Origin: an archaeon GW2011_AR10 | GTDB taxonomy: Archaea; Iainarchaeota; Iainarchaeia; Iainarchaeales; GW2011-AR10 | DNA length: 32,000 nucleotides | Direction of reading: 5' to 3' | NCBI GenBank assembly: GCA_000830275.1 | Contig: CP010424.1 | Location: forward strand, 720,001-752,000 | In this document: positions 2,184-18,645 of the stretch, in pieces | Position numbering within the stretch: the stretch's first letter is position 1 | Layout of the letters: each line of letters opens with the position of its first letter | Made by a program: the position numbers and the translations under genes | The notes under the pieces: generated by a model | Databases searched by the model: none | What the model was told of the DNA's origin: nothing | The model's input: the letters and a program-made list of their open reading frames with translations, nothing else

Positions 2184-5100
2184 GTGTCATCCAACAAAAT
2201 ATTTTTGGTTTTTTTGCTAATTTTGATTGTTGCTCCAGCCGCTAATGCCGGAGTCATAGATGATATGATTTCTGGTTTTTTTAACCTGTTTCTCCAGTCG
2301 TGTTCTTCTTCCCAGCAATGGTATTGTTACACTGAAACAGAATGCACAGGCGCAGGAGGCTACTGGTGCAATAGTTACTGTCAATCATCACCTTGCAGCA
2401 GTTCCGGTGGCAGTGGCTCTTATGGATATTGCGGCAATGGAACATGTGAAAGCGGAGAAACAACCGGAAGCTGCCCATCAGATTGTGGAAGCTATACTGG
2501 AGGAGGCTCCTCTAGTTACTGCGGAAATGGAACCTGCGAAAGCAGCGAAACATACTCCTCCTGCCCATATGACTGCGGAAGCGGAGCGCCAAGCAGTAGC
2601 GGAACCACGGTTTGCGGGAACGGAACCTGCGAATCAGGAGAAAGCACTGGAAGTTGTCCTGCTGACTGTGGAAGTTACACAGGCGGAGGCGGAGCAGGTT
2701 CTTCTTGCACAGCTGACCAGCCGTGGAATTGCTATAGCGAATCAGAATGTGTAACCGCAAGCGGAAAATGGTGTGGAAAATATTGTTCCAGTTCTTGTCC
2801 AACATGCGAAACAGGAAAAGTTTGGAACTGCTATACGCAAACTGAATGCACTTCCGCTGGCGGAAAATGGTGCAATGAATATTGTTCTGAATACGAGTGC
2901 CCGACATGCTCAGCTGCTCAGCCCTGGAATTGCAATACAGAGTCAACCTGCACTGGAGCAGGAGCAAACTGGTGCAACAACTACTGTCAGTCAGGCTCCT
3001 GCCCAACCTGTGAAACAGGAAACGTATGGAACTGCTACACTGAAAGCGCCTGCACTGGAGTAGGCGGCCAGTGGTGCGGCAACTGGTGCAGTGATAAAGC
3101 CTGCCCATCATGCTCCAAAGAACAACCATGGAATTGCTATAATGAATCCAACTGCACTACAGCAGGGGGAAACTGGTGCAACAACTATTGCTCGAATTAT
3201 GAGTGCCCAAAGTGTGATTCCAGCCAGCCCTGGAACTGCAGCAATGAGACTGACTGTGCGGCAGCCGGCGGCTACTATTGTTCTTCATCAGGAGGTGCTT
3301 CATGGTGTTCCAACTCAAAGTGCCCGGTTTGCGAAGCCGCCCAGCCATGGAATTGCTATACTCAAGGAGAATGCTCCAATGCTGGTAGCCAGTGGTGTGA
3401 GTCTGAAGGAGGCAAAGGGTATTGCTCACAGGAGTGCCCGATTTGTTCCAAGGAAAAGCCGTGGAATTGCTATAATGAAACCCAAGCCAACAATGTTGGG
3501 CTCCAATGGTGTGGCACTTTTGCTGCTGAAACCTGCCCAAAGTGCGAACCAAACAATTACTGGAATTGCTTTGACCAAACAAGTTGCACTGGTGTAGGCG
3601 GAAATTGGTGCACTTCTGACTATGGCTCTAGTTGGTGTTCCAGCAGCTGCCCAACATGCTCAGCTGAACAACCATGGAATTGCTATAATGAATCCAACTG
3701 CACTACAGCAGGAGGAAACTGGTGTGGAAGCTGGTGTAATTCCGGAGAATGCCCAACGTGTTCTCCTGAACAGCCCTGGAATTGTTCAACTGAAGAAAGT
3801 TGTAATGCAGCAGGAAAGAAATGGTGCACTTCTTCGGGCGACGCTGGTTTTGCTTCAACGCCAAGTGGCGGTTGGTGTACTGATAGCTGCCCTACTTGTA
3901 GTGAAGACCAGCCGTGGAATTGTTATTCTGAGACAACTTGTGTTTCATCTGGAGGGGAATGGTGCAATGGGTGGTGCAGTAATTCTTGCCCTGTGTGCTC
4001 TAAGACTGAACCATGGAACTGTACAACCCAATCAGAATGCGTAGCTGCAAGCGGAGAGTGGTGCGGAAACTGGTGCTCTGACAACTGCCCAACGTGTTCA
4101 GCTGAACAACCATGGAATTGTTATGATGAAGCCTCCTGTGCTAAAGCAGAAGCAAAATGGTGCTCAGACAAATTTGCTTCTTGGTGCTCTGACAACTGCC
4201 CAACGTGTTCTACAGATCAGCCTTGGAGTTGTTACAGTGAGGCAGACTGCACTGAAGTTGGAGCAAACTGGTGTGAAAGCTGGTGCAGTGTAAAGGAATG
4301 CCCAACCTGTGATAATGCCCAACCGTGGAATTGCCAAACAGAAACTGCCTGTGAAGAAGTAAATGGAAACTGGTGTATTCCGGTTGGTGGAGGGTATGGC
4401 TACTGCTCAGATGCAGAATGTGCGTCATGCAAGGAGACAAGCCCCTGGAATTGTTATAATGAAGCAGATTGTAAGGGAGTTGAAGCAGAGTGGTGCGACA
4501 CATATTGCTCTGACCAAAAATGCCCAACCTGTTCCGCTGAACAACCATGGAATTGCTATAGCCAAACAGGATGCAGTTCCGCTGAAGGAAACTGGTGTGT
4601 GTCTCCAAGTGGCGGTGCAGGATGGTGCTCCGAATATGAATGTCCAAGCTGCTCCAAAGACCAACCATGGAACTGCTATAAAAAAGAAAATTGTATTGCT
4701 GCAGAAGGGGAGTGGTGTGATTCAGGGTATGGCGCTTATTGCACCAATAAATGCCAGACTTGCTCCGAGGACGAGCCTTGGAATTGCTTTGACAAGGATA
4801 AGTGTTTGGCAACAGGCGGAGAGTGGTGCGGAACCTATTGCTCTGATTCCTGCCCTATATGTTCACCTGAGAGGCCCTGGGACTGCTATACTCAAGCAGG
4901 GTGCGAGGAAGCCAGCGGAAACTGGTGCAATGGCTACTGTTCTAATTACGAGTGCCCAAAGTGTGATTCTAGCCAGCCCTGGAACTGCAGCAATGAAACC
5001 TCTTGCAAGGATTCTGGCGGCCAGTGGTGCGGTGAAAAGGGACAAGGTGGTGCAGTATATGCTTCCTATGGCTGGTGCAGCAATGATTGCCCAACGTGTT

Positions 5101-6674
5101 CTTCTAAGACGCCTTGGAATTGTTATTCACAGAATGACTGCCAGAAGGTAGGGTCTAACTGGTGTGGAACCTATTGCTCTGACCAGAAATGCCCAACGTG
5201 TTCTCCTGAACAGCCATGGAATTGCTCCAGCAAAGCAGAATGCACTGAAGCAGCAGGAAACTGGTGTGAGCCAACATGGAAAGGCGGATATGGCTGGTGC
5301 TCTGATTACAGCTGCCCAGTGTATAATGCAGGTTACTGTGGGGATTCAGTCTGTGACTTTGCTGTGGGAGAGGACTCGTTTTCCTGTTTCGAGGATTGTG
5401 GGGAGGGACAACTTAGAGATTATGGTTGTAGAGAAATTGTAGATCCTGTTACCGGTTTCACTGAATTTGAGTGTGAAACAGAAACCTATGAGTGTTTTGG
5501 GGAACCACCAGAAGTGAAGGAAACGTGCTTGGCTTATGGCGGAACGCCAGTTTCTGAAAAGGATCCGTTCGGTTGTGACATTACTTTCTGTAAGTTTGAT
5601 GGTGTAGCTGACAAGGATCAGGTGTTTTTTGGAGGGGAATGTCTGCCAGGAGAAAAAGCAAAGGAGGTACTAAGGGCCTGTGAGAAAAATGGTTTGACGG
5701 GCATATTGGATGTTGGACTTAATGGCTGTTTTTTCCCAAGATGTGAGGGCAAACAGAATAATTACGAGGATGTTTGCGAAACTTATTCAACAGACGAGAT
5801 AAGCGAATTGGAAAATGCTTGTAAGGCACAGGGCGGAACCCTTGTTCCAAAATTTGATGATAATGGTTGTAAAACTCCAAGTTGTGAATCCGGAGATGTT
5901 TGCATTGAAATAGAAAATAATGCTGTGGAAAAATGTGCTGCATTTGGGGGTTCAATGGTTGTTGAGAAGGATGATGCAGGCTGCGTTGTTTATGCTAACT
6001 GCATTAAGAGAGGTGAAACGTCAATAGAATCAGAAGAAGTAAACGAAGTCCCTGAGCAAGAGAAATTAATTGAATTATCTGATAGATTGGATGAATTAAG
6101 CTTGGATATTGGTAATTTAGTTACAAGGAGCGAAGAATTGGCTGCCTTTTATGAAGAGAAAAATGATGAAGCCAGCCAAACAAAGTTTGAAACCCTGGTT
6201 GCAATGCTTGAGGCCGCTAATACAAAGATTGGCATGATACAGAAAGAATTAGAAGAAAATATCTATTCTATTACAACAGACGACTTGGAGAACTTAAAAA
6301 TAGAGGTCAAATACGTTAGAGATGTATTGCTTCAGGATGCAATGTTTTTGCTTTTTAGTGAACCACTTGGAGATGAAGTGGTTGATTGCGGAACGAATGA
6401 CTCTTGCTTTATGCAGGCATTCAGAATTTGCCAAAAAGCCACTATAAGCCATGTTGAAGCCGGCACAACTTTTGAAGGGGAGATTTTGGGCCTACAAAAT
6501 GAGAGGTGTGTTTTTGAAATTAGAATAGAACTGGAAGGCCAGCAGTTGGAAATGACCTGCAGGGATCCAAACTATGCGCTTGGAGACCTTGGTGATGGCG
6601 AGTTTTTGAACTATTGTGAGGGCTCACTTCTTGAAAGAATTTCAGAGTTTACTTCTCCGGAGGAAGTTGAATGA
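2184..6674 (+). CDS. Giant (1,496 aa) secreted cysteine/tryptophan-rich tandem-repeat protein, unrecognised family
   Basis: A GTG start directly follows an in-frame TAG. The signal peptide is MSSNKIFLVFLLILIVAPAANA|GV. Domain order: 3 CGNGTCESGE..CPxDCGS modules, about 24 six-Cys modules, 4 C-x15-C-x4/5-C modules, a coiled coil (EKLIELSDRLDELSLDIGNL...), then a Cys-containing C-terminal domain. The 4.5-kb frame is uninterrupted. Confidence 0.85.
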   Translation: MSSNKIFLVFLLILIVAPAANAGVIDDMISGFFNLFLQSCSSSQQWYCYTETECTGAGGYWCNSYCQSSPCSSSGGSGSYGYCGNGTCESGETTGSCPSDCGSYTGGGSSSYCGNGTCESSETYSSCPYDCGSGAPSSSGTTVCGNGTCESGESTGSCPADCGSYTGGGGAGSSCTADQPWNCYSESECVTASGKWCGKYCSSSCPTCETGKVWNCYTQTECTSAGGKWCNEYCSEYECPTCSAAQPWNCNTESTCTGAGANWCNNYCQSGSCPTCETGNVWNCYTESACTGVGGQWCGNWCSDKACPSCSKEQPWNCYNESNCTTAGGNWCNNYCSNYECPKCDSSQPWNCSNETDCAAAGGYYCSSSGGASWCSNSKCPVCEAAQPWNCYTQGECSNAGSQWCESEGGKGYCSQECPICSKEKPWNCYNETQANNVGLQWCGTFAAETCPKCEPNNYWNCFDQTSCTGVGGNWCTSDYGSSWCSSSCPTCSAEQPWNCYNESNCTTAGGNWCGSWCNSGECPTCSPEQPWNCSTEESCNAAGKKWCTSSGDAGFASTPSGGWCTDSCPTCSEDQPWNCYSETTCVSSGGEWCNGWCSNSCPVCSKTEPWNCTTQSECVAASGEWCGNWCSDNCPTCSAEQPWNCYDEASCAKAEAKWCSDKFASWCSDNCPTCSTDQPWSCYSEADCTEVGANWCESWCSVKECPTCDNAQPWNCQTETACEEVNGNWCIPVGGGYGYCSDAECASCKETSPWNCYNEADCKGVEAEWCDTYCSDQKCPTCSAEQPWNCYSQTGCSSAEGNWCVSPSGGAGWCSEYECPSCSKDQPWNCYKKENCIAAEGEWCDSGYGAYCTNKCQTCSEDEPWNCFDKDKCLATGGEWCGTYCSDSCPICSPERPWDCYTQAGCEEASGNWCNGYCSNYECPKCDSSQPWNCSNETSCKDSGGQWCGEKGQGGAVYASYGWCSNDCPTCSSKTPWNCYSQNDCQKVGSNWCGTYCSDQKCPTCSPEQPWNCSSKAECTEAAGNWCEPTWKGGYGWCSDYSCPVYNAGYCGDSVCDFAVGEDSFSCFEDCGEGQLRDYGCREIVDPVTGFTEFECETETYECFGEPPEVKETCLAYGGTPVSEKDPFGCDITFCKFDGVADKDQVFFGGECLPGEKAKEVLRACEKNGLTGILDVGLNGCFFPRCEGKQNNYEDVCETYSTDEISELENACKAQGGTLVPKFDDNGCKTPSCESGDVCIEIENNAVEKCAAFGGSMVVEKDDAGCVVYANCIKRGETSIESEEVNEVPEQEKLIELSDRLDELSLDIGNLVTRSEELAAFYEEKNDEASQTKFETLVAMLEAANTKIGMIQKELEENIYSITTDDLENLKIEVKYVRDVLLQDAMFLLFSEPLGDEVVDCGTNDSCFMQAFRICQKATISHVEAGTTFEGEILGLQNERCVFEIRIELEGQQLEMTCRDPNYALGDLGDGEFLNYCEGSLLERISEFTSPEEVE
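2427..2675 (+). repeat. Three tandem coding modules YCGNGTCESGE(T/S)xxSCPxDCGS
   Basis: Read from the translation: YCGNGTCESGETTGSCPSDCGS, YCGNGTCESSETYSSCPYDCGS, VCGNGTCESGESTGSCPADCGS. Gly/Ser linkers separate the modules. Confidence 0.85.
2706..5312 (+). repeat. About 24 tandem coding repeats (31-45 aa each): C-P-x-C-x3-(P/V/Y)-W-N-C-x5-C-x3-G-G-x-W-C-x(2-15)-(W/Y)-C
   Basis: I counted 24 consecutive units by hand, e.g. CPTCSAEQPWNCYNESNCTTAGGNWCGSWCNSGE. A degenerate zeroth unit lies at about 2301-2396. Each unit has six Cys at conserved spacing. Length variation is confined to the loop before the last Cys. Confidence 0.9.
5526..6002 (+). repeat. Four coding modules with C-x15-C-x4/5-C spacing
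   Basis: CLAYGGTPVSEKDPFGCDITFC, CEKNGLTGILDVGLNGCFFPRC, CKAQGGTLVPKFDDNGCKTPSC, CAAFGGSMVVEKDDAGCVVYANC. The Cys spacing is identical in the first three, and a GG...D..GC core is shared. Confidence 0.8.
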
Positions 6675-7012: not shown

Positions 7013-7903
7013 ATGGAATTGCAGGAACTGAATGAAGCAGGACTGCATTTAGCGCAGAGTTTTTCATCCCCGGCACTTGACTTGGTTTTCTCTGCATTAA
7101 CTGTTTTAGGTAACCCGGTTTTCTGGGTTTTTGTTGCAGCGCTGGTGTTCTGGAAAGGAGAGGAAAAAGAGTCCTTTTTCCTCATGAACATGGTTGTTTT
7201 TGCAACAGCGCTTGTAGGGGTGCTTAAGAGTTTTTTTGCTGTTCCTAGGCCGTCTCCAGAAAATTTCAGAGTGGTTGAAAACCTAGTTACAGTTAGCTAT
7301 GGCGGAAACAATTACCCTGACTTCGCTTTTCCAAGCGGCCACACTACAACTGTAACCGCGGCAGCTGTTTACCTCCAAAAATTCGAGAAAAAGTGGCTGA
7401 AAGAAATTTTTCTGGCAATAGTGGTTGCAGTGGCTTTTTCAAGGATGTACTTGGGCCAGCACTTTCCGCTGGATGTTGCAGGAGGCCTTGTTTTGGGGGT
7501 TCTCGTGGGCAACAGCAATCTACTCATACAAAAAAGGTTCGAAAAATCGCGTTTCAGGCTAACAAAATTAAGGGAGGAACTGGCATTGTTTGGAATAATA
7601 GTGGCTTCTGTTGCTGCAATTGCCTTGTTTGAGGCCCCAATAGTAAGTTTGCTGGTTTTGGGTTACTATGCAGGGTTTTTGGCCTTCAAAATCCTTGGAT
7701 TTGACTCAACAAGGCTTCAAGGCAGCGAACTGCTCAAAAAAGAGGCTCTTGGAAGCGCTGGGTTTTTGCTTCTGGTCGGGCCTGCACTCATTTTGGGGGA
7801 AGCCTTAACCCAGCTCTTGCTGTTCCTTTTCGCTGGCCTCTGGATAAGCCTTATTTTCCCGGCAGTTTACGAGAAGGTTTTAAAGAAAACGCCTTCAAAG
7901 TAG
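7013..7903 (+). CDS. PAP2-family (type 2 phosphatidic acid / polyprenyl-diphosphate) phosphatase with extra C-terminal TM helices
   Basis: All three PAP2 motifs are present: KSFFAVPRP (KxxxxxxRP), FPSGHTTT (PSGH) and SRMYLGQHFPLDV (SRxxxxxHxxxD). I prefer the ATG at 7013 over the TTG at 7007. A TATA-like box (gtttaaatag) lies about 30 nt upstream. Confidence 0.85.
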   Translation: MELQELNEAGLHLAQSFSSPALDLVFSALTVLGNPVFWVFVAALVFWKGEEKESFFLMNMVVFATALVGVLKSFFAVPRPSPENFRVVENLVTVSYGGNNYPDFAFPSGHTTTVTAAAVYLQKFEKKWLKEIFLAIVVAVAFSRMYLGQHFPLDVAGGLVLGVLVGNSNLLIQKRFEKSRFRLTKLREELALFGIIVASVAAIALFEAPIVSLLVLGYYAGFLAFKILGFDSTRLQGSELLKKEALGSAGFLLLVGPALILGEALTQLLLFLFAGLWISLIFPAVYEKVLKKTPSK

Positions 7904-7909
7904 TTATAG

Positions 7910-8121
7910 CCCTCCTTAGCTTAGTAGCAAAAGCGCTCGGCTGTAGACGCTGGATTTTCGCCCTAAAAAGCGGATCCGGGTGCTGGCACAAAAGGAGCAA
8001 TTGCATTAAGCGAAAGTTCTGTGCAAATTTAAACAGAGCATAGCACGCCCTGCAAACTCCGCCAGTTTGCGACCAGCAAGCAGTTACCGAGAGATCCCCG
8101 GTGCAACTCCGGGAGGGGGGA
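7910..8121 (+). tRNA. tRNA-Tyr (anticodon GUA) with a 139-nt intron (7947-8085) at position 37/38
   Basis: Hand-folded cloverleaf.
- Acceptor: CCCUCCU (7910-7916) pairs with AGGGGGG (8114-8120), giving C1:G72 and A73, the archaeal/eukaryal Tyr identity set. U8 and A9 are present.
- D stem: GCUU/AAGC.
- Anticodon stem: CUCGG (7936-7940) pairs with CCGAG (8087-8091).
- Anticodon loop: CUGUAG|A.
- T arm: CCCGG-UGCAACU-CCGGG.
- Bulge-helix-bulge: 3-nt bulges AGA (7945-7947) and UUA (8084-8086) flank the 4-bp helix CUGU (7941-7944) / GCAG (8080-8083). An intron helix GCUGG/CCAGC follows.
- No CCA is encoded.
- A TATA-like box (ttttaaag, about 7878) lies inside the end of the PAP2 CDS. Confidence 0.85.
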
Positions 8122-8200
8122 TTACTACATAATAGAAAAAGCAGCAAGCTTTTTAATAACCTCAAACAAGTAAATACTTACCTCAAACAGGTAAGTGAAT

Positions 8201-8413
8201 ATGAAAGATTTTAAACCAAAACTTGGAAGCCAAAGGACAAAACAAATAGAAGAGGACAGAAAAGAAGCCGTTAAAGCCATTATTGCAAATAGGGGAATTT
8301 TGAAAGGAAAAGGCAAGGCTAAAACGGAAGAAGAGTTCAAACAGCTCCAAGAAGAAGCAAACAAGCAAATTACAGCACATTACGAAAAAAAATTTGGCAT
8401 CAGTCTAAGGTAA
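8201..8413 (+). CDS. Small Lys-rich hypothetical protein (about 70 aa)
   Basis: ATG at 8201, with an alternative GTG at 8195. The protein is highly charged (MKDFKPKLGSQRTKQIEEDRKE...). Its 3' end overlaps the convergent PIN gene by 14 nt. No family motif. Confidence 0.4.
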   Translation: MKDFKPKLGSQRTKQIEEDRKEAVKAIIANRGILKGKGKAKTEEEFKQLQEEANKQITAHYEKKFGISLR

Positions 8414-8828
8414 CATCTTCGGGCTTTAAGACCTCAACTATTTCTGAAAGCTCATCCAAAAGATGCCTGTCCCTTGAAATCAAAACAGCATTATGGTGTT
8501 TGGCAACAACGACATGAATCACGTCTTTTAAAGGAAGTTCCCTGTTACGCTTTATCCATTCAGTTTTTGCCTCAGAGATTTGCTCCTGCGTGGCAACAAC
8601 ATTTTGAATTGAACTTTCAAAAGAAGAAAAAATTTGTTTGACTTTTTCCTCAGGAAAATAGACCTTTAGCTCCATGACAACAGTGTCAGAAACAAGCAAA
8701 ACATGACCTTTTTCAGCACACCATTTTAGAAACCTGAAAGCAAACTCTCCAAGCGGCCTGATTCCATCCCTTCGATCTTCATAATAGTCACGCCAAACCA
8801 GCGTGTCTGGGTAAAATTTTTTCTGCAT
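8400..8828 (-). CDS. PIN-domain (VapC-like) nuclease with no cognate antitoxin ORF upstream
   Basis: The N-terminal acidic motif is FYPDTLVW. The C-terminal LKDVIHVVVAKHHNAVLISRDRH is typical of the PIN D..hhA....h.LlT.D core. A TATA-like box (ttttaaataa) lies about 30 nt upstream on the minus strand. Confidence 0.65.
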   Translation of the reverse strand: MQKKFYPDTLVWRDYYEDRRDGIRPLGEFAFRFLKWCAEKGHVLLVSDTVVMELKVYFPEEKVKQIFSSFESSIQNVVATQEQISEAKTEWIKRNRELPLKDVIHVVVAKHHNAVLISRDRHLLDELSEIVEVLKPEDVTLD

Positions 8829-8906
8829 AGTAAGGGGGTGTGATTAATGTTATTTAAAAGTAATTAACCAAAAACAGGTAAGCAATCGCCAAAACCATCG
8901 GGATGC

Positions 8907-8943
8907 GCACTTTCTCTCCACTGGTGGGAGGGGGGACTATTAG
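8907..8943 (+). repeat. Copy 1 of a 37-nt intergenic element (GCACTTTCTCTCCACTG + tRNA-Tyr 3'-end-like GGGAGGGGGGACTA)
   Basis: Its 17-nt block is identical to 12261-12277, and about 29 of 37 positions match overall. The 3' part matches tRNA-Tyr 8111-8124 at 13 of 14 positions. It can fold as CUCUCC/GGAGGG with a 7-nt loop. Confidence 0.7.
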
Positions 8944-9046
8944 AACAAAATTGAATATGTTTGAGCGTATTACTTTTATATGCCTGAACTCTATGCCTGC
9001 CTTGTATTAATTTTGTATTAAAAAGAAGAAGAAAAATATGCGTGGT

Positions 9047-10330
9047 TTACCTGAAATTCAAAAATAATCTGAAAAAGAAAAACCAAACATGGTCAATTAA
9101 ATTATTTGGAAAGTACTGTATTCCATCATTCTTTAGCTGGTTCACTGCTTCCTTTGCTGGGTCGGAAGAATTCTTAATTGTGTCTAAAACTGTTGCACTT
9201 GTTCTAAAAGTTCCTTTTGCAGAAGGGCCCAACACTCCCTCCTTATAATTTGTAATTTGTCCATTTTGGAGATCAAAAGTGTAAACAGTTGTGCTGCCAT
9301 TATAGTTTTGAATTTCTGCGTTGTATGTTCCATCGCCGAAGCCAAAAAACACAAAATTGCCGAACGGGTTTTGGCCGGTTCCGCATTCAACATACATTTC
9401 CCTGAAAAGGTTTCCAATTGGGGTGCTACAATCCATGTTCACATTGCATGCAGGGCAAATCTGGCAATTATTAAAAGAGGTTCCGCACGCAAGGCCGGTT
9501 TGTGGCGGGCCATTGCAGTAAAACCCTGCTTTGCTGCCGTTAACAGTCGTTGTTACTGTTGCATCAGGGTGAAAGTATTTGCATATGTCAGTAGCATACC
9601 CAGTGTAACCAACACATTTTTTTCCAACGCTTGCGCAGACTTCATTCCCAGTGTCGAGAGATGAATCCGTTGAAGTGACAACATAATATGTTTTGCCATT
9701 GTAAGGGTAAGAGCCCTTGCCGCCAGCATTGTTAACTGGCTGTGCAGGCTGGCCGCCAGCAGGAGGCGAACCAGAAACAACAAAATAGACTCCATTTCTT
9801 GACTCGATTTGGTTTGAATTCAGCCCGGCACACACTGCAAGTTCTGCCGGAGTACTGCTTCTGCACGGGGCATTTGCAACACAATTTGTTGCCTGCCACT
9901 TGTTGCAGCGCGGATCGGATGAATCAACAACACATTTTTGGTAAGCAAAAGCGCTTGCACAGCTTATCTGGTTCAGTTCACAGTCATTGTAAGGGCAACC
10001 ACCGCTTACCGCTCCACCAACTGCGTCTGGACCGCGAACATAAGAAGGAGTGTTACTGCATCGAATTGAATTTGCTGGGCCGTTGTAATTTTTTAGCGTG
10101 CAAATTACTTTTCCAGGAGTTGCAGGCGTATTAGTTATGCAGGTAGTTGGAACCGCCGGGTTGTTTGCAACTGGCCCAGGGCCTGCAAGCTGGCAAAAAG
10201 TTTCTGCCGCCCCCACTGCTGAACAGTTTACGTTTGCCCGGTAATCAAATTCGCACTCGTAATCTGTGGCAAAAACAAGCCCCGCAGCTAAAACAACAAA
10301 AAGAAAAAACACAAAAAATTTTGCAGACAT
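9047..10330 (-). CDS. Secreted Cys-rich protein (427 aa, 24 Cys), unknown family
   Basis: I prefer the internal ATG at 10330, which gives the signal peptide MSAKFFVFFLFVVLAAGLVFA|TDYEC. A TATA-like box (cttttaaatc) lies about 25-30 nt upstream. A Pro/Gly/Gln linker (SGSPPAGGQPAQPVNNAGG) separates two Cys-rich halves, and the C-terminal roughly 110 aa are Cys-free. Confidence 0.7.
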   Translation of the reverse strand: MSAKFFVFFLFVVLAAGLVFATDYECEFDYRANVNCSAVGAAETFCQLAGPGPVANNPAVPTTCITNTPATPGKVICTLKNYNGPANSIRCSNTPSYVRGPDAVGGAVSGGCPYNDCELNQISCASAFAYQKCVVDSSDPRCNKWQATNCVANAPCRSSTPAELAVCAGLNSNQIESRNGVYFVVSGSPPAGGQPAQPVNNAGGKGSYPYNGKTYYVVTSTDSSLDTGNEVCASVGKKCVGYTGYATDICKYFHPDATVTTTVNGSKAGFYCNGPPQTGLACGTSFNNCQICPACNVNMDCSTPIGNLFREMYVECGTGQNPFGNFVFFGFGDGTYNAEIQNYNGSTTVYTFDLQNGQITNYKEGVLGPSAKGTFRTSATVLDTIKNSSDPAKEAVNQLKNDGIQYFPNNLIDHVWFFFFRLFLNFR

Positions 10331-10499
10331 CAGATAATTAATCAAAGAAAATGATTTAAAAGAGTTGCGGAAAAAGAAAAGACCGGTAGGAGAAGCCCTA
10401 TTTGCCGCACGAGGAATATTCAAAGGACCTGCACCGGAAACCTACTCTGCATCTCTTTTGTTTTAAAAAGCACTGCTTCTTTTTATTTTGGTGAAAAGA

Positions 10500-10943
10500 A
10501 TGACCCAATTTTCTTCAGTTGTGAAAAAAAGCAAACACCGGGTGTTTTATTTTGACATTCCGAGCCAGATTATGAATTCAATGGAATTAAAGCCATTCGT
10601 GGCCTGTAAAATGAAGGCAGAAAAAAAGCAAATAACTCTTTTTGACTTTCAAAAAACCTTTAAAATAAAACTTGATTTGGACAGGAAAACAATTAATATT
10701 GCAAAAATAATCATGAAAGAAGAAGGTTACGGGTCACTGGATGAAACAATTTCAAACGTTATAAAATGGTATTTTGCAAAATTGAAAGGAAAAAAAATTG
10801 ATTACCACACAGTTTATATTTACCCGGAAGGATTTTTGGATTCAAAATATATTTTGATAGACGATTATGAAAAAGGAATGGACAAGGTGAAAAAATCAAG
10901 AGAAAAAAACAAAAAATCCAGTGCACCAAGTGCAAAGAAATAA
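10500..10943 (+). CDS. Hypothetical protein (147 aa); zero-frame product of a candidate frameshift pair
   Basis: The ATG at 10500 has GGTGA 5 nt upstream and a TATA-like box (gttttaaaaagc) about 30 nt upstream. The N-terminus (HRVFYFDIPSQIMNSMELKP) loosely resembles an AbrB/SpoVT-type fold. The gene is very A/T-rich. Confidence 0.55.
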   Translation: MTQFSSVVKKSKHRVFYFDIPSQIMNSMELKPFVACKMKAEKKQITLFDFQKTFKIKLDLDRKTINIAKIIMKEEGYGSLDETISNVIKWYFAKLKGKKIDYHTVYIYPEGFLDSKYILIDDYEKGMDKVKKSREKNKKSSAPSAKK

Positions 10944-11059
10944 TTGAAGGCGACCTTAAAGGCACATTCATTTCATGCAAATGTGGAAAGATTGCTGTTG
11001 ACCAAACACAGCACTATACAAGAATTATTGGCAATAAAGAAGACTGGAAGGCGATTTGA
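10871..11059 (+). CDS. Start-less ORF in the -1 frame encoding a CxxC...CxC zinc-ribbon-like segment
   Basis: The translation ..KIQCTKCKEIIEGDLKGTFISCKCGKIAVDQTQHYTRIIGNKEDWKAI* has no ATG, GTG or TTG in frame. It overlaps the 3' end of the 10500-10943 ORF, where the zero frame reads A_AAA_AAC (10904-10910). Confidence 0.35.
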   Translation, partial: KRNGQGEKIKRKKQKIQCTKCKEIIEGDLKGTFISCKCGKIAVDQTQHYTRIIGNKEDWKAI

Positions 11060-11166
11060 TGGCTAAATTTGTTTTTGAGTTAAAAAAATTCATTATAAAA
11101 AATTACGGCAAAAAATGCCCAGACTACGATCCTTTCTGTGCAGCATGCATAATGTGGTCCTCTTAG
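11059..11166 (+). CDS. Possible 35-aa Cys-containing small ORF
   Basis: Its ATG overlaps the upstream TGA (TGATG). The translation is MAKFVFELKKFIIKNYGKKCPDYDPFCAACIMWSS*. It is below the ORF-track length cutoff, so support is only coupling and Cys spacing. Confidence 0.3.
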   Translation: MAKFVFELKKFIIKNYGKKCPDYDPFCAACIMWSS

Positions 11167-11320
11167 GAGACTATTAAAGAAGGAGTGGAATTAGGAGAAG
11201 TGCCAAAAAAGAAGAGCAAATAAGAGCCCTATTTGCTTTCCAGCATCAAATGAACGGATTTGTTCCTCAACTATGTGTGTTACTCATGCCTTTTTAAATA
11301 TTTCTGAGTAACATATATTT

Positions 11321-12253
11321 ATGGCTTATTTGGTAAAAAGAAAAAGAGGCGACAAAGTTTACTTTTACTTGGCAGAAAACATAGCTGTGGCAAGGGGCCA
11401 AAGAAAGCAAATAAGAAAATATTTGGGAACAAAAAAGCCTTCTGAAACAAAACTGCAGTTTTTGATGTCAGATTTTGAAAAAGAGGTTGAAAAAGAACAA
11501 GTAAAATTGCACGGCAGACATTATCTTACAGAGGATGAAATAAAAGAAATAAATAGAATTAATGAAGATTTTTGGAAACGATACAACAAACAAAACAACA
11601 CAGTGCAGGAACAATTTGACCAGAATTTTGTAATGGCGTTTGTCTACAATACCAATTCGATTGAAGGCTCGACTTTGAGCCCAAAAGAAGTTGAACTTCT
11701 TTTAAGCGAAAACATTTCTCCAAACAAGCCACTTGATGATGTGCTGGAAGCAAAGGCAGCGCAAAAAACGCTAAATTTTGTAAAAGGATTTAAAGAAGAA
11801 TTCAGTGAAGAATTAGTGAAAAAAATCCACAAAATGTATTTTCAAGACACAAAACCAAAAATTGCAGGATATTATAAAACATATCAAAACAGGGTGACTG
11901 GCTCAAACTTTGAACCAACACCACCACATTTTGTTTTAACTGACATGAAAAATTATTTTGCAGAAAATAACAAACTCAAAAAAGAACTTCACCCATTGGA
12001 ACTTGCGACTTGGGCGCACTGGAAACTTGTGCGAATACACCCGTTTCAGGACGGAAATGGCAGAACGGCACGCATAATAATGAATTTTATTTTACATAAA
12101 AATGGTTATGCAATGATTGACATAAAAACAAAAGAAAAACAGCAATATTTCAACGCACTGGAAAAATGCCATTACAACAATAATGCAAGGGCACTGGCAA
12201 TAAGACTTGTTAGACGGTTCAAAAAGCAATACCAAAATGCGTTAAAGGAATAA
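11321..12253 (+). CDS. Fic-domain protein (AMPylase-type), class II with an internal inhibitory motif
   Basis: The Fic active-site motif HPFQDGNGRTAR (HxFx[D/E]GNGRxxR) lies at 12038-12073. The upstream TNSIEG at 11651-11668 fits the (S/T)xxxE(G/N) auto-inhibitory helix motif. Confidence 0.9.
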   Translation: MAYLVKRKRGDKVYFYLAENIAVARGQRKQIRKYLGTKKPSETKLQFLMSDFEKEVEKEQVKLHGRHYLTEDEIKEINRINEDFWKRYNKQNNTVQEQFDQNFVMAFVYNTNSIEGSTLSPKEVELLLSENISPNKPLDDVLEAKAAQKTLNFVKGFKEEFSEELVKKIHKMYFQDTKPKIAGYYKTYQNRVTGSNFEPTPPHFVLTDMKNYFAENNKLKKELHPLELATWAHWKLVRIHPFQDGNGRTARIIMNFILHKNGYAMIDIKTKEKQQYFNALEKCHYNNNARALAIRLVRRFKKQYQNALKE

Positions 12254-12260
12254 ATGAACT

Positions 12261-12297
12261 GCACTTTCTCTCCACTGTCGGGAGTCGGGATTAATCT
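12261..12297 (+). repeat. Copy 2 of the 37-nt intergenic element
   Basis: GCACTTTCTCTCCACTG tc GGGAGTCGGGATTA atc. This is a direct repeat of 8907-8943, 3,354 nt away. It lies in the convergent gap between Fic and the TerC-like gene. Confidence 0.7.
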
Positions 12298-12387
12298 TTT
12301 AGGGCAACTCGCCTTTTTGTTGTGCAGGCATTGATTTTATTTTGCGGGATAATTCTTGTTAGTCAATTCGCTTGCTTTTCCAGGGCA

Positions 12388-13308
12388 TTAATTAGTGAGT
12401 TCTTTTCTTGATTTCCAGAAGAAGTACCCTATTACAGCAAAGGTTATTGCTGGTGAAATCCACTGTGGGATCCCCATTCCAAAGCTTTCCAAAAGCATTA
12501 CTGTTCCAAGAAAAAATATTGAATACATTGCACCGTTTTTCAGGTACTTGTATTTTTTTACCCTTTCAATGTTGTGTACTGTGAATTCTCTCACCACAAA
12601 TGCACCCAAGCCGTTTCCAATAATTATTAGGGGTATCGAAAGCGTGAATGCAAAAGCGCCGATTACACCGTCAATGGAAAAGGTGGTGTCTATTACTTCA
12701 AGGTAAAGTATTTTGCTCAAGTCGCTTAGGTTTGAGGCCTTGTCCAAAAGCTTTCTTTCCTGTGCCTCTGCATTTTCCTTAAAGCCGTGCGTGATAAAGA
12801 ATGCAGTTGATCCTACCACTGCACTGAAAGCCATCAGGGGGTTAACTCGTATTGCAAACCAAACAATCACTGCAAGCAGGATTGAAACCACGGCAAAAAA
12901 CCAGATGCTAAAATCGTGGATTATTTTTTCTCCGAAAAGCCCGTAGTTTTTTGGCTCAATGAAAAGCCAGTGGAAAAAGAGGAAAACCAGGAAAACCCCG
13001 CCGCCAATCAGCAAAATCGGCTTGGATTGTTCAATTGACTTTATGACTAATGGGTCAGAACTGAACGTGGCTGTCAGGGCTTCAATAGGGGAAAGCGAGG
13101 GGTTCGCTATCCACACTATAAGCCAAGGCAAAAGCCCTCTTACAATGAAAACTGCAAACAATAAGCCCCATAATAAAAACCATTTCCTTGCCTTTTGCGA
13201 CATTGTTGAGAGGACATCTGCGTTTATAACAGCATTATCTATTGAGGAAATGGTTTCAAAAAGCAGTAGCCCAAGAATTGTCAGGGAAACAAGGAAAAGG
13301 TCAAACAT
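12388..13308 (-). CDS. TerC-family / DUF475-like integral membrane protein
   Basis: Multi-TM protein with ETISSIDNAVINA and EVIDTTFSIDGVIGAFAF, the paired (E..S.DN / S.DG) motifs typical of the TerC/DUF475 superfamily. Confidence 0.75.
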   Translation of the reverse strand: MFDLFLVSLTILGLLLFETISSIDNAVINADVLSTMSQKARKWFLLWGLLFAVFIVRGLLPWLIVWIANPSLSPIEALTATFSSDPLVIKSIEQSKPILLIGGGVFLVFLFFHWLFIEPKNYGLFGEKIIHDFSIWFFAVVSILLAVIVWFAIRVNPLMAFSAVVGSTAFFITHGFKENAEAQERKLLDKASNLSDLSKILYLEVIDTTFSIDGVIGAFAFTLSIPLIIIGNGLGAFVVREFTVHNIERVKKYKYLKNGAMYSIFFLGTVMLLESFGMGIPQWISPAITFAVIGYFFWKSRKELTN

Positions 13309-18362: not shown

Positions 18363-18497
18363 GCCCTGGTAGTCTAGCGGTTAGGATTCACCCCTGTCAT
18401 GGCCCTGTTCTTCTCGAAAGAAAGGCCTTGGGAAAAATAAGCCTGAGGAAAGGGCTACTGAACGGGTGAGACTCGGGTTCGAGTCCCGGCCAGGGCG
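18363..18497 (+). tRNA. tRNA-Asp (anticodon GUC) with a 63-nt intron (18400-18462) at position 37/38
   Basis: - Acceptor: GCCCUGG/CCAGGGC, with discriminator G.
- D loop: AGCGGUUA.
- Anticodon stem: CACCC (18389-18393) pairs with GGGUG (18464-18468).
- Anticodon loop: CUGUCA|C.
- T arm: UCGGG-UUCGAGU-CCCGG.
- The intron forms helix GGCCCU/AGGGCU next to a relaxed bulge-helix-bulge whose central helix has one U-U mismatch.
- No CCA is encoded. Confidence 0.9.
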
Positions 18498-18645
18498 CTA
18501 GCTTAAACTGTCTTTAATTTGCCTTTTATAAAAAAAGGCGCGTTTAACTGTTTTCTCCTGTTGCAGGGCTCTGTTGAAAAAGTAGTTTCATAAGCCACCT
18601 CGACAGGAAAAGCTTTTTTATAAGAATCAATATTTTTATAGTGGC

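Follow-up and report, generated by a model that had tools for sequence, protein, structure and literature searches.

Tandem genomic islands that carry a conserved motif next to their repeats and that include integrase-less members are documented (PMC3146451, PMC5704250). In Dehalococcoides, the tandem islands at ssrA have a 15-bp motif next to each 20-bp repeat, and 15 ssrA islands without integration modules have been proposed to be cis-mobilisable (PMC3146451). Tandem integration is also documented in archaea, in which the identity blocks of the attachment (att) sites measure 8-13 bp (8, 11 and 13 bp for Thaumarchaeota elements, Msmi-Pro1 and SNJ2; PMC8371274). This study analyzed a 32,000-nucleotide (nt) stretch of archaeon GW2011_AR10 (contig CP010424.1, positions 720,001 to 752,000), hereafter the window, in which partial copies of the 3' end of a tyrosine transfer RNA gene (tRNA-Tyr) bound a set of accessory genes. 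Like the Dehalococcoides ssrA islands (PMC3146451), the units of this array are stacked downstream of one small RNA gene and are separated by direct repeats of its 3' end. The array is very probably explained by serial site-specific integration at the 3' end of tRNA-Tyr and subsequent decay. The window contains two small integrase-less islets and the stub of a third element, and the locus is an ordinary, well-resolved integration hotspot because intact elements with an integrase occupy the same spot in related genomes.

Results

Copies of the tRNA-Tyr 3' end in the window

An initial annotation made from the sequence alone had claimed that the tRNA-Tyr 3' end recurs twice downstream of the gene and that the two distal copies share a 17-mer; both claims proved correct. 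The core GGGAGGGGGGATTA recurs in the same orientation at 8926-8939 (13/14, 1 mismatch) and 12280-12293 (12/14, 2 mismatches). Approximately 0.10 matches are expected by chance, and at least 3 matches were obtained in 0 of 100 dinucleotide-preserving shuffles. The 17-mer GCACTTTCTCTCCACTG is present as an exact sequence at 8907-8923 and 12261-12277, directly 5' of each distal core, and no third occurrence was found in the window even when 3 mismatches were allowed. A repeat search of the window recovered the distal copies as a 33-nt pair with 85% identity. These repeats and the tRNA gene divide the array into the following features:

7910-8121, forward strand: intact tRNA-Tyr(GTA) gene, exons 7910-7946 and 8086-8121, with a 139-nt intron at 37/38
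8111-8124, forward strand: att core copy 1, exact GGGAGGGGGGATTA, formed by the last 11 nt of the tRNA and 3 trailer nt, at the junction of the tRNA and islet 1
8125-8906, no strand assigned: islet 1, approximately 0.8 kb, with left end (A)TTACTACATAA and the 17-mer arm at its right end
8898-8939, forward strand: junction motif copy 2 between islets 1 and 2, consisting of TCGGGATGC, GCACTTTCTCTCCACTG, GT and the core GGGAGGGGGGACTA
8940-10430, reverse strand: Cys-rich segment of islet 2
10431-12260, forward strand: Fic module of islet 2, with a sharp left boundary at GCACCGG
12260-12293, forward strand: junction motif copy 3, consisting of T, the 17-mer, TC and the core GGGAGTCGGGATTA
12291-12350, forward strand: third-element stub, homologous to an integrase-proximal arm and promoter region and ending before the integrase coding sequence
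12388-13308, reverse strand: TerC/DUF475 gene (Pfam), into whose 3' end the stub runs

The order of the array is thus tRNA-Tyr with core 1, islet 1, arm with core 2, islet 2, arm with core 3, stub and TerC. The tRNA-Tyr gene is the integration target and forms the attB side of attL. Its intron is long enough to hide it from default tRNA finders: the gene was missed by default ARAGORN and by Rfam (at the gathering threshold, and at E<=10 on 7700-12700), and an intron-aware ARAGORN run was therefore needed. The cloverleaf, with the acceptor, D, anticodon and T arms around the intron, is visible in the minimum-free-energy fold of 7905-8128. Among relatives, the intron of this gene ranges from 38 to 236 nt. 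A PAP2 gene (Pfam) lies upstream of the tRNA-Tyr gene in the window, and tRNA-Tyr is also located downstream of PAP2 in five of the loci compared (L022, L023, L026, L028 and L032).

The window contains a second tRNA gene at 18363-18498, with an intron of approximately 63-65 nt, which was missed by default ARAGORN and found by Rfam. The ARAGORN call of Ser(TGA) places its intron at 33/34 and may be wrong.

A junction block conserved across archaeal contigs

The pattern CTTTCTCTCCACTGNNGGGAG was scanned in species-representative genomes, metagenome contigs and viral contigs, which yielded 15 matches in total. The junction block is carried by seven archaeal contigs, two of them from metagenome-assembled genomes in the genome collection (L007 and L009) and five from metagenomes (L012, L014, L016, L017 and L021); the scan of the viral contigs for the motif gave no match. 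The remaining matches (L008, L010, L011, L013, L015, L018, L019 and L020) lacked the flanking conserved bases and were rejected as chance. Alignment of nine copies from 7 contigs revealed a block of approximately 38 nt, (TC)GGGRNNTGCACTTTCTCTCCACTG-NN-GGGAGGCGGGAT, with unrelated flanks; the 17-mer plus core reads TGCACTTTCTCTCCACTGNNGGGAG. This conservation in other archaeal contigs indicates that the repeat is not a chance feature of the window. When the seven other contigs were compared with the window by BLAST, the block always coincided with a break in synteny. Contigs carrying an identical TerC protein all had the same layout and hence provided no comparative information.

The core follows the tRNA-Tyr acceptor variant of each genome, either GGCGGG or GGGGGG. 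The acceptor pair 4-69 is G4-C69 in L007, U4-G69 in the window and C4-G69 in L023 and L026. Core 3 of the window (GGGAGTCGGGA) differs by 1 mismatch from the GGCGGG-type core that relatives carry, as would fit an element-side origin. Readings of the motif as a tRNA half, a T-arm mimic or a minus-strand D-arm were dropped, as the variable dinucleotide covaries with no partner.

Several contigs end 0-47 nt from an att core, namely L007 (at both ends), L009, L017, L025, L027, L030 and L031. This suggests branching of the assembly graph and a junction occupancy that varies within populations, with ascertainment bias as a possible contributor.

Integrase-bearing relatives and an empty site

The contig L007, read as the reverse complement, starts inside tRNA-Tyr (...CCGGGAGGCGGGATTATACC), and an integrase open reading frame (ORF) begins 57 nt past the core. 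The encoded protein has 408 amino acids (aa), is intact, matches Pfam Phage_integrase at 7.2e-22 and carries a C-terminal zinc ribbon. The element measures 7.1 kb; the contig ends in TGCACTTTCTCTCCACTGTTGGGAGGCGGGATTT, the distal junction reads TGCACTTTCTCTCCACTGTT GGGAGGCGGGATT, and the two ends of the element share the perfect 13-nt repeat GGGAGGCGGGATT, which carries that genome's own tRNA variant. The 17-mer is located on the element side of the integrase-element junctions. The initial annotation had mentioned the SSV-type archaeal integrases that are split by integration; this remark does not apply here, since the integrase is classical and intact and starts downstream of the core.

A search with the L007 integrase returned 2141 homologs at E<=1e-10, and its 408 aa equal the length of these homologs, many of which owe their annotation as 'XerD/ribosomal protein L40E' to the zinc ribbon. 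Among solved structures, those of archaeal XerA are closest (E 7.8e-13), and the match to IntI4 is weak and partial (8.6e-06). The protein shares approximately 35% identity, across 93% of its length, with integrases that archaeal pleomorphic viruses encode. The tblastn search of the early loci with this integrase gave no match. Homologs with 50-88% identity are encoded directly after tRNA-Tyr in L022, L023/L024 and L033, and in L023, L024 and L026 the tRNA-Tyr and integrase genes directly follow the same PAP2 gene. The locus L026, taken from a 985-kb contig, contains a 10.1-kb integrase element flanked by perfect copies of GGGAGGGGGGATTA, identical to the 14-mer of the window. No recognisable distal motif was found for the L022 element at the position homologous to L017/L007, which may reflect a deletion.

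An empty site was identified in L028/L029, where PAP2 is 46% identical to that of the window and an unrelated helicase gene comes immediately after tRNA-Tyr; neither a repeat nor an island is present. The PAP2 homologs were few (8 at E<=1e-20), and this sole empty site comes from a distant genome without TerC synteny. A state in which tRNA-Tyr abuts the TerC-like gene, for which the initial annotation had proposed a search of related genomes, was not found in the comparison; the one empty site has a different downstream gene.

In the locus L034 (9900-11236), which has no tRNA and adjoins Prim-Pol, TIR and Mrr genes, a core and an integrase are accompanied by an arm-like sequence, with TGCACT again at offset -20. 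This locus could represent a related plasmid-like element in its episomal attP form.

Stub of a third element

The array extends beyond the third copy of the core. The 11-mer TTTAGGGCAAC in the stub has the same spacing from the core that it has in L033. When the global alignments of the stub with integrase-proximal arms were compared with those of shuffled sequences, the real score was beaten in 0/2000 shuffles for L033, 1/2000 for L022 and 12/2000 for L007; the similarity of the stub to the empty-site trailer of L028 was not significant. The segment 12291-12350 thus matches the integrase-proximal arms, not the empty-site trailer, which implies that the array once held a third, integrase-bearing element. 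Judged from this alignment, nearly all of that element is gone.

Content and composition of the two islets

Islet 1 lies between the core at 8111-8124 and the arm and core at 8898-8939, and islet 2 lies between 8926-8939 and 12260-12293. No integrase was found in the window by tblastn with the L007 integrase, and the Pfam searches revealed no recombinase among the islet ORFs. The islets keep both att junctions without an integrase, and they are therefore integrase-less derivatives, not autonomous elements. On the basis of these sequence features, they are best described as resembling cis-mobilisable elements (CIMEs), which are att-flanked and integrase-less. Their genes are as follows:

8201-8413, forward strand: 70-aa ORF in islet 1, convergent with the PIN gene
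8400-8828, reverse strand: PIN-domain gene in islet 1 (Pfam PIN)
9047-10333, reverse strand: secreted Cys-rich protein gene in islet 2, no Pfam match
10488-10943, forward strand: 147-151-aa ORF in the Fic module
end at 11059, forward strand: zinc-ribbon ORF in the Fic module, in the -1 frame, seen in translation
11056-11166, forward strand: 36-aa Cys mini-ORF in the Fic module
11321-12253, forward strand: Fic gene (Pfam Fic, 1.8e-23)

The accessory gene content was as the initial annotation had described it, with PIN and Fic recognised by Pfam and the zinc-ribbon mini-ORFs visible in translation. The composition agreed only in part with the initial annotation, which had called the 10.4-12.25 kb part much more A/T-rich than its surroundings: the Fic module and islet 1 deviate, and the Cys-rich segment does not. 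The Fic module (0.337) has a lower G+C content than any same-size window elsewhere (minimum 0.392), and so does islet 1 (0.375, minimum 0.377); the Cys-rich segment is host-like (0.430, host mean 0.445). Islet 2 is thus composite, comprising the host-like Cys-rich segment and a Fic module sharply bounded at 10431. In the interval that separates the Cys-rich gene from the Fic module (10340-10430), a search for a degenerate motif gave nothing convincing.

The 16-mer ACCTCAAACAGGTAAG forms a tandem pair within 8159-8195, before the 70-aa ORF, and has a third copy at 8867-8882, upstream of PIN. It is thus present at both ends of islet 1 and is kept in L012; it may act as operator or promoter for the convergent pair.

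The Fic module also contains a candidate conserved -1 frameshift. The ORF at 10488-10943 has an in-frame A_AAA_AAC slippery site at 10904-10910, and the zinc-ribbon ORF (KIQCTKCKEIIEGDLKGTFISCKCGK..., to 11059) is well conserved in the -1 frame and lacks its own start codon. The same layout is observed in L014 (approximately 2717-3055) and L032 (approximately 12790-13150), with A_AAA_AAA and a zero-frame stop nearby. The slippery site could reflect ribosomal frameshifting or transcriptional slippage. Both processes are rare in archaea.

Islets and modules shared with other arrays

The presence and content of the array vary between related genomes, with breakpoints at the repeats: the site is empty in L028, and the content differs among L012, L014/L016, L032 and L026. 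The segment 94-919 of L012 is 84% identical to 8111-8936 of the window (islet 1) and has a motif copy on both sides, the right one of which is followed by a Doc/Fic-type gene. In L014, the motif is followed by a ribbon-helix-helix (RHH) and PIN gene pair resembling islet 1 and then directly by the homolog of window 10431-12251, with no Cys-rich gene. The L032 array consists of tRNA-Tyr, a 1.1-kb islet of unrelated small ORFs, the motif (with 2 mismatches in the 17-mer) and the Fic module, here a homolog of window 10430-11183 plus a Fic gene. The Fic module is 84.5% identical to L014 2308-4129 and 79% identical to L032 12382-13134, and the Cys-rich segment is missing from both of these homologous arrays. 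In L021, HicA/HicB genes lie on one side of the motif and a MazE-type antitoxin with PIN on the other. The left-end sequence of islet 1 also opens different islets in L032 and L016.

The left end of the Fic module (GCACCGGAAACC..., GCACCGG; window 10431, L014 2308, L032 12382) is identical in three contexts, being preceded by the motif in L032, by the PIN upstream region in L014 and by the Cys-rich gene in the window.

The contigs L007 and L014 share 1562 nt at 100% identity, and the last 57 nt of L014 overlap the first 57 nt of L016, from the same assembly, at 98% identity. The joined contigs would form an array of tRNA, the 7.1-kb integrase element, motif, and RHH and PIN genes with the Fic module. 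Continuing into L016, the array would then comprise a decayed core without the 17-mer, a 0.9-kb islet, the motif, an antiporter gene and TerC.

Outside the array, window 2184-6674 encodes a 1496-aa secreted protein with approximately 30 copies of a Cys-rich repeat of approximately 34 aa (C..C...PWNCY...C...WC).

Discussion

The initial annotation had proposed serial integrase-less islets with the 17-mer as a common element end, and this proposal is supported by relatives that carry integrase elements between perfect repeats, by the empty site and by the units that recur as discrete blocks. In the mechanism that we propose, the tRNA-Tyr 3' end would be the attachment site of an archaeal integrative-element family that encodes a classical, non-split tyrosine integrase of approximately 400 aa with a C-terminal zinc ribbon. 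The element site would comprise the 17-mer arm, the core GGGAGGSGGGAT(TA) and a right arm, and would recombine with the tRNA. We infer that strand exchange takes place inside the 11-14-nt core (GGGAGGSGGGATT) and that the 17-mer is a putative element-side integrase-binding arm. Integration would keep the tRNA intact at the proximal junction, and an arm with a core would remain at the distal junction. Repeated integrations would have stacked elements in tandem, and later deletions would have removed the integrases; in this order of events, the unit nearest the tRNA would be the newest.

Several observations weigh against this account. No integrase or integrase fragment was found in the window by tblastn, and the link to an integrase therefore rests on other genomes; the searches of the source genome for further copies and for an integrase cover the 32-kb window. 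Neither distal core of the window is a perfect copy (13/14 and 12/14), and the block of identity is short. The Cys-rich segment resembles the host in G+C content and has no motif bounding its right side. The left end of the Fic module (GCACCGG) is not an att core and is equally sharp in three contexts; some rearrangement of the array was therefore not core-mediated. The distal junction of L026 lacks the 17-mer, and the arm is therefore specific to a sub-lineage. Moreover, the join of L014 and L016 rests on the 57-nt overlap within one assembly.

Part of the array might instead consist of mini-cassettes that are mobilised in trans, a possible but rather doubtful explanation. Such cassettes would be non-autonomous units of 0.8-1.1 kb with conserved ends (left TTACTACATAA..., right the 17-mer and core, a site of approximately 38 nt that mimics the tRNA end) and with interchangeable toxin-antitoxin, Fic or PIN cargo. 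They would be inserted, reordered and excised in trans by the zinc-ribbon tyrosine integrases of larger co-resident elements, which would make tRNA-Tyr the anchor of an integron-like platform in a lineage of groundwater DPANN-like archaea. The islets of L032 and L016 agree with this explanation, as they are alike only in the left approximately 60 nt (CTACATAACAAAAAGTATTTAA...) and the right approximately 50 nt and contain unrelated genes; islet 1 opens with this left end too, both in the window and in L012. This islet type and the Fic module follow each other in opposite order in L032 and in L014/L016, the cargo is mostly toxin-antitoxin-like, the cassettes adjoining the motif are toxin-antitoxin pairs (HicAB, motif and MazE-PIN in L021; PIN islet, motif and Doc/Fic in L012), and the many contigs that break 0-47 nt from a core suggest population heterogeneity. 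However, no circular or excised junction (...CTCCACTGGTGGGAGGGGGGA joined to TTACTACATAATAG) was seen, the pattern involves only a handful of loci, and integration into internal junctions could reorder units without any autonomy of the cassettes. Serial integration of larger elements, with decay that keeps addictive toxin-antitoxin genes, explains most of these patterns and is the simpler account. A classical integron, with the repeats as attC sites and the islets as cassettes, shares with the array its small cassettes, many of them of the toxin-antitoxin type, and its conserved separating site. It is nevertheless extremely unlikely, because the site mimics a tRNA 3' end and is not an imperfect-palindrome attC, genes of either orientation occur, the integrase resembles XerA most and matches IntI4 only weakly and in part, and the integrase, where present, lies within a 7-10-kb repeat-bounded element and is not a fixed platform gene.

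The two alternatives that the initial annotation had offered, a minus-strand hairpin and an in-frame small ORF, do not withstand comparison with the other copies. The 35-nt repeat would be a minus-strand RNA element (a 3'-end hairpin or terminator belonging to the upstream membrane or secreted protein genes, or a small RNA) if its likeness to the tRNA were coincidental, and both window copies do lie approximately 95-108 nt downstream of a minus-strand stop codon, with a 9-bp hairpin that can be drawn at the motif. RNAalifold on 9 copies revealed covariation in 0 of 9 predicted pairs, with a stem that depends on G-U pairs, and the repeats gave no Rfam match even at E<=10. The gene context is also inconsistent, given that no minus-strand gene end lies near the copies outside the window and that the right copy of L012 and that of L021 are followed by plus-strand genes. 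The core, furthermore, tracks the acceptor variant of each genome's tRNA-Tyr, and the copies coincide with synteny breakpoints; we consider the RNA element very unlikely. The probability that the copies encode a conserved N-terminus of small peptides (M..CTFSPLxGxG) is close to negligible. Both window copies are in frame after an ATG, but no ATG is present at that position in the copies of L014/L007, L016, L017, L021 and L032. The variation falls on codon positions 1 and 2, the third positions of the 17-mer are all invariant, and the downstream reading frames are short and unrelated.

Under serial integration and decay, the locus provides an attachment site, consisting of an 11-14-nt core and a conserved 17-nt element-side arm, together with a matching integrase family. 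As a comparative case it is clean, and it comes from archaea that have been little studied; mobile elements of the DPANN type are poorly charted. The comparable arrays span states from an empty site to four stacked units, and the locus shows how small genomes acquire PIN, Fic and toxin-antitoxin genes and how islands decay to stubs. Because default finders miss the tRNA-Tyr gene with its long intron, the island would go unrecognised by standard pipelines. If the mini-islets were indeed mobilised in trans, they would be an archaeal counterpart of cis-mobilisable elements or of cassette platforms.

Comparison with known systems

The array and the Dehalococcoides ssrA islands both have an element-side motif upstream of the distal repeats that does not align with the RNA gene (15 bp in Dehalococcoides and 17 bp in the window), and in both systems some islands carry an integration module next to attL and others do not. 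The systems differ in target (tRNA-Tyr here, not the transfer-messenger RNA (tmRNA) gene), in host (a DPANN-like archaeon) and in recombinase (a zinc-ribbon tyrosine integrase here, a serine recombinase in Dehalococcoides). The window islets are also much smaller than the Dehalococcoides islands, measuring 0.8-3.3 kb and carrying genes of the PIN, Fic and toxin-antitoxin type.

Similar to CIMEs and ICESt1-type accretion (PMC5704250), the islets lack integration genes, keep their att junctions and lie in tandem at the 3' end of the target. CIMEs could be mobilised by a related integrase, and the window islets are candidates for this trait by analogy. Unlike ICESt1-type CIMEs, these arrays are archaeal and contain no conjugation module.

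The integrase of the relatives resembles the class II (pNOB8/XerA-related) archaeal integrases (PMC8371274) in that its gene stays intact after integration, lies next to attL and has a tRNA target. The short att identity block and the closest structures, those of XerA, also agree with class II elements (PMC8371274). The C-terminal zinc-ribbon extension and the lack of an integrase in the window itself set this locus apart from them. SSV-type ('suicidal') integrases also target archaeal tRNA genes, but their att site lies inside the integrase ORF, which is split into int(N) and int(C), whereas the core here lies 57 nt upstream of an intact gene. Chromosomal integrons likewise hold small cassettes, often toxin-antitoxin pairs, between conserved recombination sites. 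This resemblance is functional only: the present site is not attC-like, the cassettes do not all point the same way, and a fixed intI/attI platform is missing. The array therefore belongs to the known tandem islands at tRNA and tmRNA genes that have CIME-like integrase-less members.

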